Of a stretch of DNA of 64,000 nt, positions 6,185 through 55,118 are shown piece by piece. Every line of letters starts with the position of its first letter. Position 1 is the stretch's first letter. The position numbers and the translations under genes were made by a program. This stretch comes from Arenimonas sp. (GTDB taxonomy: Bacteria; Pseudomonadota; Gammaproteobacteria; Xanthomonadales; Xanthomonadaceae), in contig NZ_DASTNG010000017.1 in NCBI RefSeq assembly GCF_035721105.1, positions 23,393 through 87,392 of the forward strand, given 5' to 3'. The notes under the pieces are model-generated. The model was not told where the DNA came from. It did not search any database and saw only the letters and a program-made list of their open reading frames with translations.

Positions 6185-7699
6185 ATGTCCCTGATCGTCC
6201 CCGTCCTGCTCTCCGGCGGCTCCGGCACCCGGCTCTGGCCGCTGTCGCGCGAAACCCATCCCAAGCAGTTCCAGCCGCTGGTGGGCGAGCAGTCGCTGCT
6301 GCAGGCGACCTGGCAGCGCCTGGCCGGGCTGGCGGGCGCGGGGGCGCCGATCGTGGTGGCGAACGAGGAGCACCGCTTCATGGTGGCCGAACAGCTGCGC
6401 CAGGTCGGCGTGACCCCGGCCGCCCTGCTGCTCGAGCCGGTGGGCCGCAACACCGCCCCGGCCATCGCCGCCGCGGCCCTGCAGGCCCAGGCCGACGGCA
6501 GTGATCCGCTGCTGCTGGTGCTGCCCTCGGACCACGTCATCCGCGACGAGGCCGGCTTCCGCGCCGCCGTGCAGGCCGCGGTGCCCGCCGCCGAGGGCGG
6601 CCAGCTGGTCACCTTCGGCGTGGTGCCCGCCGCGCCCGAAACCGGCTACGGCTACATCAAAGCCGCCCCGTCCCCTGTAGGAGCGCCTTCCGGCGCGAAT
6701 CTTTCCGCGAAGGGCTTCGCGCCTGAAGGCGCTCCTACAGAGGGGCAGTCGGTGGGGCGGGCGGAGGTGCGGGCGGTGGAACGGTTCGTGGAGAAGCCGG
6801 ACCTCGCCACGGCGCAGGCCTACGTCGCCAGCGGCGACTACTTCTGGAACTCGGGCATGTTCCTGTTCCGGGCCTCGCGCTACCTGGACGAACTGCAGGC
6901 GTTCGCGCCGGCGATGCTGGCCGCGGCCCGGGCCGCGCTGGCCGGGGCCACGCGCGACGTCGACTTCCTGCGCCTGGACCGGGCCGCGTTCGAAGCCTGC
7001 CCGGCCGACTCCATCGATTACGCGGTGATGGAAAAAACTTCTCAGGCCGCCGTGCTGCCGATCTCGGTGGGCTGGAGCGATGTAGGCTCGTGGTCGGCGC
7101 TGTGGGAAATCGCCGACCAGGACCCGGACGGCAATGCCCACCACGGCGACGTGCTGGCGATCGACTGCCGCAACACCCTGGCCTGGGGCGGCCGCCGGCT
7201 GGTCAGTCTGCTGGGCCTGGACGACGTGATCGTGGTCGACACCGACGATGCGCTGCTGGTGGCGGCGCGGGACCAGGTGCAGAAAGTCAAGGAGATAGTT
7301 TCTGCCCTGAAAATTCAGGGTCGTCCGCAGGCCAGCGTGCACCGCAAGGTGTATCGTCCCTGGGGCAGCTACGACGGCATCGACAGCGGCGACCGCTTCC
7401 AGGTCAAGCGCATCGTGGTCAAGCCGGGGGCGGCGCTGAGCCTGCAGATGCACCACCACCGGGCCGAGCACTGGATCGTGGTTAGCGGCAGTGCCCGGGT
7501 CACCTGCGATGACAAGGTGTTCCTGCTGGCCGAGAACCAGAGCACCTACATCCCGCTGGGCAGCAAGCACCGCCTGGAAAACCCCGGCAAGGTGCCGCTG
7601 GAGCTGATCGAGGTGCAATCGGGCAGCTACCTGGGCGAGGATGACATCGTGCGGTTCGAGGACGTGTATGGCCGTGGCCCGGACCCTACGCGGGGCTGA
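6185..7699 (+). CDS. manC: Mannose-1-phosphate guanylyltransferase / mannose-6-phosphate isomerase, with a REP-derived insertion
   Basis: LLSGGSGTRLWPLSR, EPVGRNTAPA, FVEKPD, WNSGMF, C-terminal cupin RPWGSY and LSLQMHHHRAEHW. Confidence 0.95.
   Translation: MSLIVPVLLSGGSGTRLWPLSRETHPKQFQPLVGEQSLLQATWQRLAGLAGAGAPIVVANEEHRFMVAEQLRQVGVTPAALLLEPVGRNTAPAIAAAALQAQADGSDPLLLVLPSDHVIRDEAGFRAAVQAAVPAAEGGQLVTFGVVPAAPETGYGYIKAAPSPVGAPSGANLSAKGFAPEGAPTEGQSVGRAEVRAVERFVEKPDLATAQAYVASGDYFWNSGMFLFRASRYLDELQAFAPAMLAAARAALAGATRDVDFLRLDRAAFEACPADSIDYAVMEKTSQAAVLPISVGWSDVGSWSALWEIADQDPDGNAHHGDVLAIDCRNTLAWGGRRLVSLLGLDDVIVVDTDDALLVAARDQVQKVKEIVSALKIQGRPQASVHRKVYRPWGSYDGIDSGDRFQVKRIVVKPGAALSLQMHHHRAEHWIVVSGSARVTCDDKVFLLAENQSTYIPLGSKHRLENPGKVPLELIEVQSGSYLGEDDIVRFEDVYGRGPDPTRG
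6675..6740. repeat. REP doublet inserted in frame inside manC
   Basis: CTGTAGGAGCGCCTTCCGGCGCGAA...TTCGCGCCTGAAGGCGCTCCTACAG, translated as [22 protein letters not shown]. Confidence 0.92.
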
Positions 7700-12800: not shown

Positions 12801-14242
12801 TGGCCGGCGCCGGCCATGCACTGGAGCAGGCCCTGGCCTACTACCGTGCGCCGGCGCGGCTGGCGATGGCGGCGCACCGGCCGCTGCCCGACGACCTGAT
12901 CGAACTGCTGCGCCTGGCCGCGGGCGACGGCGCCCAGGCCGCGGCCAGCGCCGCGGCCAGCGGCGAATCGCCCGAACGCGTGGCCGAGGCCGCGGTGTTC
13001 TTCGTGCAGCAGGTGATGTTCGCGGCCGGGGCCGACCCGCACCGCGTGCTGGGCGTGAACCCCGGCGCCCCCGCCGCCCGCATCCGCGAGCACTACCGCT
13101 GGCTGATCCGCTGGCTGCATCCCGACCGCAACGCCGACGACTGGGACAACGTCTACACCGACCGCGTCACCCGCGCCTGGCAGCAGCTTCGCCGCAGCGG
13201 CGCGCTGGCGGGGGAGGGCGGGGCCGACGCCGGCGAGTCCGCGGCCGAAGCCGCGCAGGACGCCGAATGGTCCCGGCTCGCCACCCGCGGCCGGCCCACG
13301 CCCGACGCCGCGCCGCGCGCCGCTGAGCCCGCCGCCGCCGAGGCCCCGGCCGCCGCCCCGCGCGCGACCGAACTCCCGGTCGCGCTGGCCCGCATCTCCC
13401 GCGAAACCGACGCCGCCCCCATCCTCTCCGCCCGCACCGCCCGCCGCCTGCCGGTGTTCGTGCTGGGCGGCCTGGGCCTGGCCGCCGTCAGCCTGGTCGC
13501 CCTGCTGTGGGTCGCCCAGCAGCAAAAAGCCGCGCGCCCGACCCTGGCCCGCGTCGAGCTGCCCGCCGTCGACGTGCCCCGCGAATCGCCCGCGATCCCC
13601 GGCGCCGCCCGCGCCAGCCTCGAGCTCCCCGCGCCCGTCCTCCCCCTCCTGCCCGCCATCCCCGCGCCCACCCCCTCCCCTGTAGGAGGGCCTTCAGGCC
13701 CGAATCTTTCCCCCGCCATCTCCGCGCCCAACCCCGCCCGCCCGCCCGCCCCGGCCGTGCCGCTGGCCGGCGACGCGCAAGCGGCGCCGGTACCGCAGGT
13801 CGCGGCGGAAAGCTTCGGGCCTGAAGGCCCTCCTACAGGGGAGGGCGTGGCGGCAGCGGAGACCGAGGCCACGGCCCCGCCAGCGCCGATGGACGAAGCC
13901 AGCGCCCGCGCCGTGCTCGCGAAGTTCAGCGCGGCCTACGCGGCGGGCGACATCAACGCCCTGATGCGCCTGTTCACCCGCGACGCGCGCAACAACCGCG
14001 GCGGGCGCGACGCCATCGTCTACGACTACCAGTCGCTGTTCGCGCGGTCCCGCGAGCGCCGCCTGGACCTGCAGCCCAACGGCTGGATCACCGGCGACAG
14101 CGGCGCCGTGGTGCTGGCCGAGTACGCGGCCTGGGTGAAAGAGGGCCGCCTGTTCCCCGGCAGCACCACCCGCGGCACCATCCGCTTCACCCTGCGCCGC
14201 GAAGACGGCGAACTGAAGATCAGCCAGGTGATCCATGACTGA
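12800..14242 (+). CDS. J-domain (HPD) membrane protein with Pro-rich linker and C-terminal NTF2/SnoaL-like domain
   Basis: HRVLGVNPGA...HYRWLIRWLHPDRN, one TM (VFVLGGLGLAAVSLVALLWV), C-terminal ARAVLAKFSAAYAAGDINALMRLF. TGATG coupling to wzc. The domain calls are by eye. Confidence 0.65.
   Translation: MAGAGHALEQALAYYRAPARLAMAAHRPLPDDLIELLRLAAGDGAQAAASAAASGESPERVAEAAVFFVQQVMFAAGADPHRVLGVNPGAPAARIREHYRWLIRWLHPDRNADDWDNVYTDRVTRAWQQLRRSGALAGEGGADAGESAAEAAQDAEWSRLATRGRPTPDAAPRAAEPAAAEAPAAAPRATELPVALARISRETDAAPILSARTARRLPVFVLGGLGLAAVSLVALLWVAQQQKAARPTLARVELPAVDVPRESPAIPGAARASLELPAPVLPLLPAIPAPTPSPVGGPSGPNLSPAISAPNPARPPAPAVPLAGDAQAAPVPQVAAESFGPEGPPTGEGVAAAETEATAPPAPMDEASARAVLAKFSAAYAAGDINALMRLFTRDARNNRGGRDAIVYDYQSLFARSRERRLDLQPNGWITGDSGAVVLAEYAAWVKEGRLFPGSTTRGTIRFTLRREDGELKISQVIHD
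13680..13838. repeat. REP doublet (subtype B) inside the J-domain protein CDS
   Basis: CTGTAGGAGGGCCTTCAGGCCCGAA at 13680 and TTCGGGCCTGAAGGCCCTCCTACAG ending at 13838, both translated. Confidence 0.9.
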
Positions 14243-52585: not shown

Positions 52586-52598
52586 CCACCCCGCAACA

Positions 52599-52712
52599 CC
52601 CATCGAGACCGGCTGAGGGGTAGGCCCGAAGACGCCGGGGCAACCCATGCACGAGCAATCGCGCATGAAGGTGCCAATTCCTGCGGGGACCGCGCGTCCG
52701 CCGAGAGATGGG
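52599..52712 (+). ncRNA. SAM-I riboswitch aptamer
   Basis: P1 CCCATC/GATGGG, CTGAGGGG..GGCCC, GCAACC, GGTGCCAATTCCTGC, GAGAGATG, upstream of metX-metB-hom. Confidence 0.9.
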
Positions 52713-52765
52713 TCATGTGCTTCCCCGCCCCGGCGGGGCACGTGACGCCGCTTTCCCGCAAGAAC

Positions 52766-52793
52766 CTCCCTGGGTGCCCGACCCACCCAGGAG
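52766..52793 (+). promoter_or_regulatory. RBS-sequestering hairpin (riboswitch expression platform)
   Basis: CTCCCTGGGTG pairs with CACCCAGGAG, which contains the metX RBS. Confidence 0.65.
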
Positions 52794-52800
52794 CCCCGCG

Positions 52801-53937
52801 ATGAGTGTCCACCCCGCCCCCAGCCGCGCCCCGGCCGTTTCCGCCATCCCGGCGGTCCGCGCCATCACCGCCCCCGCCGCGGCCCTCCCTGTAGGAGGGC
52901 CTTCAGGCCCGAATCTCTTCGCCGCGACCCTGACGACGAAGCCGTCCGTCGAAACCGCTTCGGGCCTGACGCCCCTCCTGCAGGGCGCCACGGGCTTCAC
53001 GCTGCCCTGCGAACTACCCCTGCGCCACGCCGGCCCGCGCCACGTCGTGATCCGCGGCGAATGGCACGGGGCGCCCGGCGCGCCGGTGGTCGTGGTGGCG
53101 GGCGGCATTTCGGCCGGTCGCCAGGTCGTCGCGGGCGCGGCGTCCCCGGGCTGGTGGGACGCGCAGGTCGGCCCCGGCCGCGCCATCGATACCCGCCGCT
53201 TCCGCGTGCTGGCCCTCGACTGGCTGGGCGCCGACGGCGCGCTGGACGCCCCCATCGACAGTGCTGACCAGGCCGATGCTTTCGCCGCGGTGCTCGATCA
53301 CTTCGGACTGCGCCGGGTACGCGCCTTCGTCGGCGCCTCGTACGGGGCGATGGTCGGGCTGCAGTTCGCGGCGCGGCACGGCGATCGCCTCGATCGCCTC
53401 GTCGCAATCTCCGGCGCCCATCGCGCCCATCCCTACGCCAGCGCCTGGCGCGCGCTGCAGCGCCAGTGCGTGGCGCTGGGGCGCAGCGAGGGCAGCGTGT
53501 CGCGCGGCCTGGCCCTGGCCCGGCAGTTCGCGATGCTCAGCTATCGCACGCCCGAGGAATTCGGCGAACGCTTCGATGCACCGGCCGCGCTGCAGGGCAA
53601 CGTCGCCCGCTGCGCCGCCGAGGACTACCTGGCGCACTGCGGCCAGCGCTACGCCGCGCGCTGGACCAGCACCGCCTTCCTGCGCCTGTCCGAATCGATC
53701 GACCTGCACCGCGTCGATCCCGCCGGCGTGCGGGTGCCGACGACCGTGGTCGCGGTCGAGGATGACCGCCTGGTGCCGCTGGCCGACCTGCAGCAGCTGG
53801 TCGAGACGCTCGGTGCGCCGGCCACGCTGCGGCCGTTGCGCTCGCGCTTTGGCCACGACGCGTTCCTGAAGGAGGAGGCCGCGATCGCGCGGCTGCTGCG
53901 CGAAGCCCTGGCCGCGGCCGAAGGCGGTGCGGCGTGA
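52801..53937 (+). CDS. metX: Homoserine O-succinyl/acetyltransferase (MetX alpha/beta-hydrolase family)
   Basis: VAGGISA, GWWDAQVG, FVGASYGAMVGL, LSYRTPEEF, SESIDLH, FGHDAFLKE. Confidence 0.92.
   Translation: MSVHPAPSRAPAVSAIPAVRAITAPAAALPVGGPSGPNLFAATLTTKPSVETASGLTPLLQGATGFTLPCELPLRHAGPRHVVIRGEWHGAPGAPVVVVAGGISAGRQVVAGAASPGWWDAQVGPGRAIDTRRFRVLALDWLGADGALDAPIDSADQADAFAAVLDHFGLRRVRAFVGASYGAMVGLQFAARHGDRLDRLVAISGAHRAHPYASAWRALQRQCVALGRSEGSVSRGLALARQFAMLSYRTPEEFGERFDAPAALQGNVARCAAEDYLAHCGQRYAARWTSTAFLRLSESIDLHRVDPAGVRVPTTVVAVEDDRLVPLADLQQLVETLGAPATLRPLRSRFGHDAFLKEEAAIARLLREALAAAEGGAA
52889..52983. repeat. REP doublet (subtype B, right arm decayed) in the metX N-terminal coding region
   Basis: CTGTAGGAGGGCCTTCAGGCCCGAA (PVGGPSGPN) and TTCGGGCCTGACGCCCCTCCTGCAG (SGLTPLLQ). 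Confidence 0.85.
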
Positions 53938-55118
53938 GCGCGCGCTGTCCCGCCACCGTCGCGGTGCGCGCCGGCATCGACGCCGACACGGCCTTCGGTG
54001 CGGTCACGCCGCCCTTGGTGCTGTCGAGCAACTTCAGTTTCGCCGGCTTCGACCGCAAGCGCCGCTACGACTACACCCGCAGCGGCAACCCGACCCGCGA
54101 CCAGCTGGCCGAGGCGCTGGCCGAGCTCGAGGGCGGCGCCAATGCCGTGGTCACCGCCACCGGCCTGGCCGCGATCACGCTGGTGCTGGAAGCGGTGCTG
54201 CAGCCGGGCGACCGGCTGGTGGTGACGCATGACTGCTACGGCGGCAGCTGGCGGCTGTTCGATGCGCTCGCGCGCAAGGGCCGCTTCACGCTGGCCCTGG
54301 TCGACCTGGCCGACCCGCGGGCGCTGGCCGCCGCACTGGCGACGCCAACCGCGCTGGTCTGGATCGAGACGCCGTCGAATCCGCTGCTGCGCATCACCGA
54401 CCTGCAGGCCGTCATCGCCGCCGCCCACGCGGCCGGGGCGCTGGCGCTGGTGGACAACACCTTCCTGTCGCCGGCGCTGCAGCGTCCGATCGAGTTCGGC
54501 GCCGACTACGTGCTGCACTCGACCACCAAGTACATCAACGGCCACAGCGACGTGGTCGGTGGCGCGGTGGTCGCGCGCGACGCGGCGCGGCACGAGTCCC
54601 TGGCCTGGTGGGCGAATGCCCTAGGCCTCACCGGCTCGCCCTTCGACAGTTTCCTGACCCTGCGCGGCCTGCGCACCCTGGACGCGCGCCTGCGCGTGCA
54701 CCAGGAAAACGCCGCCGCGCTGGCCGAGCGCCTGCAGCGGCACCCGGCCTGCGCCGCCGTGCACTATCCCGGCCTGGCCACGCACCCGGGCCACGCGCTG
54801 GCCGCGCGACAGCAGCGCGGCTTCGGCGCGATGCTGTCGCTGGAGCTCGCGGGCGGCGTGCCGGCGGTGCGCGCCTTCCTCGACGGCTTGCGCCACGTCA
54901 CCCTGGCCGAATCGCTGGGCGGCGTGGAGAGCCTGGTGGCCCATCCGGCCACGATGACGCACGCGGCGATGTCGGCCGAGGCGCGCCGGAACGCCGGCAT
55001 CGGCGAGGGCCTCTTGCGCCTGTCCGTCGGCATCGAGGCGCTGGAAGACCTGGAGGCCGACCTCGGGGCGGCGCTGGCGCGCGCGGCGCGCGTGTCGTCC
55101 CCGGCGGTGCTGTCGTGA
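53934..55118 (+). CDS. metB: Cystathionine gamma-synthase / O-succinylhomoserine (thiol)-lyase
   Basis: YDYTRSGNPTR, WIETPSNP, VDNTFLSP, HSTTKYINGHSD, LAESLGGVESL. Confidence 0.93.
   Translation: MSARCPATVAVRAGIDADTAFGAVTPPLVLSSNFSFAGFDRKRRYDYTRSGNPTRDQLAEALAELEGGANAVVTATGLAAITLVLEAVLQPGDRLVVTHDCYGGSWRLFDALARKGRFTLALVDLADPRALAAALATPTALVWIETPSNPLLRITDLQAVIAAAHAAGALALVDNTFLSPALQRPIEFGADYVLHSTTKYINGHSDVVGGAVVARDAARHESLAWWANALGLTGSPFDSFLTLRGLRTLDARLRVHQENAAALAERLQRHPACAAVHYPGLATHPGHALAARQQRGFGAMLSLELAGGVPAVRAFLDGLRHVTLAESLGGVESLVAHPATMTHAAMSAEARRNAGIGEGLLRLSVGIEALEDLEADLGAALARAARVSSPAVLS

Follow-up and report, generated by a model that had tools for sequence, protein, structure and literature searches.

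The closest described counterparts of the element considered here are the intragenic GTAG REPs surveyed by Di Nocera, De Gregorio and Rocco (2013, BMC Genomics 14:522; PMC3733652). A GTAG-type REP is defined as an imperfect palindrome of 20–40 bp with a GTAG head; such palindromes also form inverted dimers and lie in frame in known proteins, where they code for about 20–30 or more residues, and their hosts include DnaE2 and tRNA synthetases. An N-terminal location is common; many of the N-terminal copies lie upstream of the true start, and the same authors deem most of them non-coding. REPINs, together with RAYTs, were described by Bertels and Rainey (2011; PMC3116915) as extragenic elements. 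The Rickettsia palindromic elements (RPEs; Ogata et al., 2000), in the summary given in PMC3733652, sit in frame in functional genes and are tolerated in surface or unstructured segments; according to that summary, N-termini decorated with RPE-1 are expressed in vivo. Finally, in Xanthomonas campestris, experiments on the met operon's SAM-I riboswitch (SAM-I_Xcc; Tang et al., 2020; PMC7270179) have demonstrated mainly translational control, via an anti-SD stem, of this operon, which encodes homoserine O-succinyltransferase, metB and hom.

The REP doublet in the metX gene of Arenimonas sp. is a well-supported new example of the known intragenic GTAG REPs, with RPE-like behaviour and no new mechanism; its standout features are an unusually secure start codon and a site that is occupied across a clade. 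Its left arm fits the definition of a GTAG-type REP, and, like the published copies, the element is an inverted dimer, in frame and N-terminal, in a genome where DnaE2 and a tRNA synthetase are decorated too. It differs from them in that the insert reaches 99 nt, owing to an expanded loop, and in that seven related lineages have REPs in this one tail; moreover, whereas most N-terminal REPs were deemed non-coding, the start of MetX is fixed by a conserved, riboswitch-linked SD and ATG. The likeness to REPINs and RAYTs is seen at the level of the genome, which has 98 inverted doublets, most with a fixed loop of 16–17 nt, and a Y1_Tnp gene bordered by perfect REPs, but the metX copy lies inside an ORF (as do 10 other elements of this genome), has a 45-nt loop and one diverged arm, and belongs to a subfamily, B, whose REPs were not found to flank any RAYT. 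The parallel with RPEs, so far as their published summary reaches, is a functional analogy only: these form an unrelated sequence family and are longer, whereas here a REP doublet is found in a free-living, high-GC gammaproteobacterium. With SAM-I_Xcc, the locus shares the operon and the arrangement of an aptamer and an anti-SD hairpin (here a predicted one) before the start, but the X. campestris ORF has no reported REP.

We consider it likely that the element is a REPIN, kept in frame in the disordered tail of MetX behind a riboswitch-controlled ATG, and that it is a translated, tolerated passenger; its anatomy, the homology of the start codon, the conserved frame and the predicted disorder of the tail are shown, and actual translation and neutrality are inferred. 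On this reading, a GTAG-type REPIN of subfamily B with an expanded loop would have become embedded in frame in a poorly conserved, disordered tail; ribosomes initiating at AUG 52801 would read through the hairpin; and the product would gain about 33 extra residues (about 30–62) just before the first β-strand. The insert would be a tolerated passenger, the only visible constraint on it being an open reading frame, and the tail site would either have held REP sequence since the common ancestor of the closest Arenimonas relatives or have been hit repeatedly.

The features of the locus are collected in Table 1, with positions in the window, by which we mean the whole stretch of 64,000 nt that was analysed. 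The exact 378-residue product starting at 52801 is on record at NCBI; it scores 451.1 bits against NF006449 (cut-off 296), with residues 70–372 aligned to profile positions 35–339 of 344. The GTG start of metB overlaps the TGA stop of metX (GTGA, 53934–53937), suggesting that translation of the two genes is coupled in the met operon, and a homoserine dehydrogenase gene comes next; this gene order is that of the X. campestris met operon, XC1251–1253. Upstream, the SAM-I aptamer is present in 18 of 20 orthologous loci, where it ends 75–102 nt before the start ATG. In the predicted expression platform, CCUGGGUG (52769–52776) pairs with CACCCAGG (52784–52791), the SD being AGGAG at 52789–52793; an SD-sequestering hairpin is likewise predicted in the last 40–47 nt before the ATG in all nine of the nearest relatives, with sequence changes that keep the pairing. 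These are single-sequence folds: RNAalifold, applied to the expression platforms of 17 orthologues, returned no consensus structure because their alignment was poor, and was set aside.

Table 1. Features of the metX locus, and further in-frame REPs, in the Arenimonas sp. window
Feature	Position	Strand	Remarks
SAM-I riboswitch aptamer	52597-52714	+	RF00162, 76.1 bits against a gathering score of 44.4; model 1-108 of 108
Anti-SD/SD hairpin of expression platform (predicted)	52766-52793	+	52760-52803 folds at −14.6 kcal/mol
metX CDS, homoserine O-succinyltransferase MetX, 378 aa	52801-53937	+	NCBIfam NF006449 (PRK08775)
Native hypervariable N-terminal tail before the REP	52801-52886	+	GC3 0.93 in the ATG frame, 0.90 in the core; pLDDT <50
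REP left arm, subfamily B	52887-52913	+	Core at 52891-52913 perfect; translated (L)PVGGPSGPN
Expanded REPIN loop, 45 nt	52914-52958	+	Ends tctcttcgcc...gaaaccgc
REP right arm, reverse orientation	52959-52985	+	3 mismatches to consensus; translated SGLTPLLQ(G)
metB, O-succinylhomoserine (thiol)-lyase / cystathionine gamma-synthase	53934-55118	+	TIGR02080, 565 bits against a cut-off of 504.55
In-frame REP in ManC	6677-6738		
In-frame REP in J-domain protein	13682-13836		

The inverted doublet occupies 52887–52985 (99 nt) and comprises two 27-nt arms, paired at 24 of 27 positions (89% complementary), on either side of a 45-nt spacer. An earlier note on this DNA had described a doublet translated as ...PVGGPSGPNL...SGLTPLLQ..., its arms read in two different frames from ATG 52801, and the computed translation agrees with this throughout. 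It had also called the left arm intact, and indeed the 23-nt core, GTAGGAGGGCCTTCAGGCCCGAA, is found there with no mismatches, as against three in the right arm. The left arm is built as GTAG-GAG-GGCC-TTCA-GGCC-CGAA, and its rare A/T-ending codons have not been replaced (GC3 0.33). In the right arm, the first change, CTA to CTG, is synonymous, removes a rare codon and gives the GCAG variant, which accounts for 13 of the genome's 57 exact subfamily-B stem matches and leaves a U·G wobble in the mRNA; the other two are AAG to ACG (K to T) and GCC to CCC (A to P). The 99-nt element has a minimum free energy (MFE) of −59.6 kcal/mol, or −71.0 kcal/mol if the right arm is made the complement of the left; the corresponding figure is −65.5 kcal/mol (z = −6.9) for a 111-nt region folded as RNA and, for comparison, −73.4 kcal/mol for a canonical short-loop doublet. 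The three substitutions, said previously to weaken the hairpin, do cost 11.4 kcal/mol of pairing, but one of them is a common variant that keeps a wobble pair, and the hairpin still folds at −59.6 kcal/mol. The further suggestion that pairing is decaying is not supported in view of 24 of 27 pairs, this folding energy and a left arm at perfect consensus with its GC3 of 0.33.

The ends of the metX loop match those of the canonical 16–17-nt loop (gcttttcgcc gaaaagc), with ~28 nt extra in the middle, and the long-loop copies among the 98 genomic doublets retain the same loop ends. Judged by its sequence, the element is thus probably a REPIN with ~28 nt added in the loop; two independent REP singlets are less likely, because the ends of the spacer fit those of a canonical REPIN loop. 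Given its 45-nt loop and diverged arm, this copy is probably no longer mobile. A SorX-like Rfam match at 52867–52919 (19 bits against a gathering score of 46.6) was discarded as a chance match to the REP stem.

The REP family is abundant, with 17 copies in the window against 0 expected, and 252 arms in 140 elements in the whole genome under study (G000; 2.97 Mb, 87 contigs) against 0 arms in a reversed-genome null. Three subfamilies are set apart by compensating stem changes, their cores being ..GCGCCTTCAGGCGC.. (A), ..GGGCCTTCAGGCCC.. (B) and ..GGGACTTCAGTCCC.. (C, with few copies in this genome). Loops of 16–17 nt are found in 81 of the 98 inverted doublets, and these are typical REPINs. The genome gives three PF01797 (Y1_Tnp) matches, none of them flanked by subfamily B REPs. 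A Y1_Tnp gene outside the window, at C25:198–521, has perfect subfamily A REPs on either side (53–75, 614–636 and 679–701), and C25:53–701 is a REPtron-like RAYT locus.

An AlphaFold2 model of MetX, built on a 23-sequence alignment (mean pLDDT 83.6, pTM 0.81), has an α/β-hydrolase fold with a core at pLDDT >90, whereas residues 1–60 fall below 50 and the first strand spans residues 64–74. The REP-coded stretch, 33 codons without a stop (residues about 30–62) and rich in Gly, Pro, Ser and Ala, is in this model wholly contained in the disordered tail, ending two residues before the fold. The native part of the tail also carries an 18-nt tandem duplication (52830–52865, 78% identical, encoding PAVSAI/PAVRAI), which fits weak constraint. 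The length of the protein fits an insertion, since 378 residues less the 33 REP codons leave 345, close to the 344 positions of the NF006449 profile, and since 78 residues separate the initiator ATG from the RHAG motif, as against 35–58 in REP-less relatives. Forty-eight columns of the alignment are invariant, among them S180 (in the GASYG motif), D322 and H352, which, by analogy with the fold family, would form the Ser-Asp-His triad. A word search of protein with residues 1–100 gave 1921 candidates, none of them significant. The insert had been called exapted; lying in a hypervariable tail with pLDDT <50, it looks tolerated rather than used.

REP-bearing MetX tails were found in seven lineages: G000, G017 and G023, the metagenome contigs L117, L118 (ERZ1066122...NODE-1885) and L119, and the cultured A. 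metalli CF5-1, in which the doublet is seen in the protein record (356 aa). Their architectures vary, with a doublet, a singlet plus a doublet, or a doublet plus an extra arm, drawn from subfamily B or C, and the interval from the ATG to RHAG measures 195 nt in G017, 204 in G023, 159 in L117, 195 in L118, 204 in L119 and 234 in G000; in all five loci examined as DNA it is a multiple of 3 and free of stops. Two frames are used for the left arm among these five: in L118 it gives CGRDFSPD (VGGTSVP elsewhere) and is followed by two right arms, and the total is still in frame. Five of six lineages also lack stops in frame +2 of the tail, so an open frame alone is weak evidence in such GC-rich DNA.

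The four lineages G000, G017, L117 and L118 form a clade in the MetX tree (support 100/99), all of whose members are REP-bearing; L119 and G023 fall outside it, their place in the tree not being fixed. REP subfamily load differs sharply between congeners, and only REP-rich genomes have REPs in metX: copies of subfamilies B and C number 70 and 5 in G000, 65 and 182 in G017, and 0 and 205 in G023, whereas the REP-less relatives G015, G006 and G014 have 0 and 0, 3 and 2, and 7 and 11, respectively.

It is against this distribution that a selected role for the hairpin has to be weighed. A hairpin of −59.6 kcal/mol within the first 190 nt of the ORF could affect elongation or mRNA decay, and the REP might, besides being translated, have been selected as a met leader RNA element, stabilizing the mRNA or tuning early elongation and hence riboswitch output. 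The prevailing view is that REP hairpins work as RNA elements (PMC3733652); they persist in the tail in seven lineages, six of which were folded, with whole-tail MFE values from −74 to −115 kcal/mol; and a sense-strand U·G pair survives one of the three right-arm changes. The other two changes in G000 are, however, uncompensated mismatches, the arms of L117 carry 3 and 4 mismatches, and the first arm lies at anything from 39 to 90 nt past the AUG. Moreover, the REP-poor, closely related G015, G006, G014 and L038 do without a REP in metX while keeping the same riboswitch and start, and the presence of the element follows the REP load of the genome rather than metX. We therefore regard selection as a leader element as unlikely. 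The note's proposal that a strong hairpin near the start had possibly interfered with riboswitch-controlled initiation is not supported: the doublet begins 86 nt past the AUG, outside the initiation footprint, and the relatives tolerate REP hairpins only 39–54 nt from it.

A related possibility is that the MetX tail is a long-lived landing pad for REPs, in which subfamilies replace one another at the same junction, while a strong hairpin has become part of the met leader and is retained because it modulates mRNA stability or early elongation downstream of the riboswitch. The right junction is common to G000, G017 and L117, the three that were compared (the arm, four codons, then TTC ACG CT), and this favours a REP already present in their common ancestor. 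The tail holds subfamily B in G000 and subfamily C in G017, L117 and L118. It is improbable that six coordinated arm-pair differences arose in place, which leaves replacement or conversion of the copy, or repeated hits on the site. We judge the landing-pad reading quite improbable.

The reading of the element as a tolerated, translated passenger depends on where MetX begins. The 23 orthologues compared, taken from the genus and other families of its order, all begin M-S-(L/F/V) or, once, M-T, and 21 of them have a GGAG-type SD 6–8 nt upstream of the ATG (none is seen at L010 and L015). The earlier note had stated that no ATG or GTG lies in frame between the REP and the catalytic domain, and this proves correct with TTG included: the first canonical in-frame start past the REP is GTG 53047 (codon 83), without an SD. 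ATG 52801 is, on this comparative evidence, the real start of MetX, as the note had proposed, because the SD and ATG and the distance to the riboswitch are conserved, no usable start lies downstream, and the frame is kept in seven lineages. This places the REP within the ORF, and the comparison implies that it is almost certainly translated. An in-frame ATG upstream, at 52708–52710, would give a 409-aa ORF, but its AUG falls within the conserved P1 strand of the aptamer, GAGAUGGGUC; in several orthologues, stops intervene before the MS(L/F/V) start, and the 409-aa product is not on record. This ATG is a trap for gene callers.

The alternative is that the REP belongs to the 5′-UTR, where its hairpin would be a post-transcriptional element, and that translation starts beyond it at a weak or non-canonical codon, either CTG 53002 (codon 68) or GTG 53047. 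There is precedent both in the N-terminal REPs that lie upstream of true starts (PMC3733652) and in A. metalli CF5-1, for which MetX is recorded in two forms: an older one of 313 aa (KFN45593.1 / WP_052575333.1), with a non-ATG start just past the REP, at the codon equivalent to L68 (MPLELALRHAG), and another of 356 aa (WP_425387863.1), which includes the doublet. Neither candidate codon has an SD, though, and a start at CTG 53002 would clip strand 64–74, whereas one at codon 83, inside strand 78–89 (β2), would lose strand 64–74 altogether, together with the invariant R75 and the near-invariant G78. Furthermore, REP-less relatives, which have no alternative start, share the conserved SD, ATG and riboswitch distance, and in seven REP-bearing lineages the ATG is in frame with the core despite inserts of unequal length. 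A UTR needs no phase, and its repeated conservation across differing inserts would not be expected of one. The 5′-UTR reading is thus very unlikely, and the practical ambiguity in annotation is resolved, the long A. metalli form (356 aa) being right by the comparative evidence.

That metX is instead decaying after damage by the REP, with methionine synthesis sustained by a paralogue elsewhere, is highly improbable: a second, distant MetX-like gene does exist (G000:C62:25844–26875, 32% identity), but X. campestris has the same two-gene arrangement (PMC7270179), the ORF is intact, with all 48 invariant columns present by definition (S180, D322 and H352 included), a profile score of 451 bits against the cut-off of 296 and a core GC3 of 0.90, and the riboswitch, the SD and the overlapping metB start are intact as well.

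The metX copy is not alone in being built into a protein. In a crude census that demanded that the frame be open across the element and that both flanks show strong GC3 periodicity, 11 of the 140 REP elements (~8%) are in frame inside real genes: metX and 10 others, encoding ManC, an IcmF-like mutase, Lpd, an E2 acyltransferase, DnaE2, MetRS, an ABC-F ATPase, PEP carboxylase, a J-domain protein and one unknown. Most of these 10 lie in linkers. Every intragenic forward arm in the genome is read V/A-G-(A/G)-P-S-G. The commonest doublet, with a 17-nt loop (52 of 98), lacks stops in no reading but the alternative one, RSAFRRE...SRLKALLQ; in this census that form is never found inside a gene, the loops of doublets within genes being 16 nt, 18 nt or long. 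The single peptide reading and the absence of the 17-nt-loop form from genes suggest that a filter at the level of the peptide decides which REP copies survive there. Intragenic arms are also more diverged, with 1.18 against 0.59 mismatches per arm (one-sided Mann–Whitney U, p = 0.012; Fisher, p = 0.06), a difference that is compatible with age alone. The metX element and a near-perfect insert in manC had been offered as a time series; this divergence gives no dates, and the series cannot be built on it.

Overall, the value of the metX element lies in its setting. Published work regards the coding status of N-terminal REPs as doubtful; here, the start is pinned independently by the riboswitch, so that such a REP can be demonstrated to be coding. 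More broadly, the ~8% of REP elements that this Arenimonas genome has built into its proteins illustrate how selfish repeats lengthen disordered linkers.
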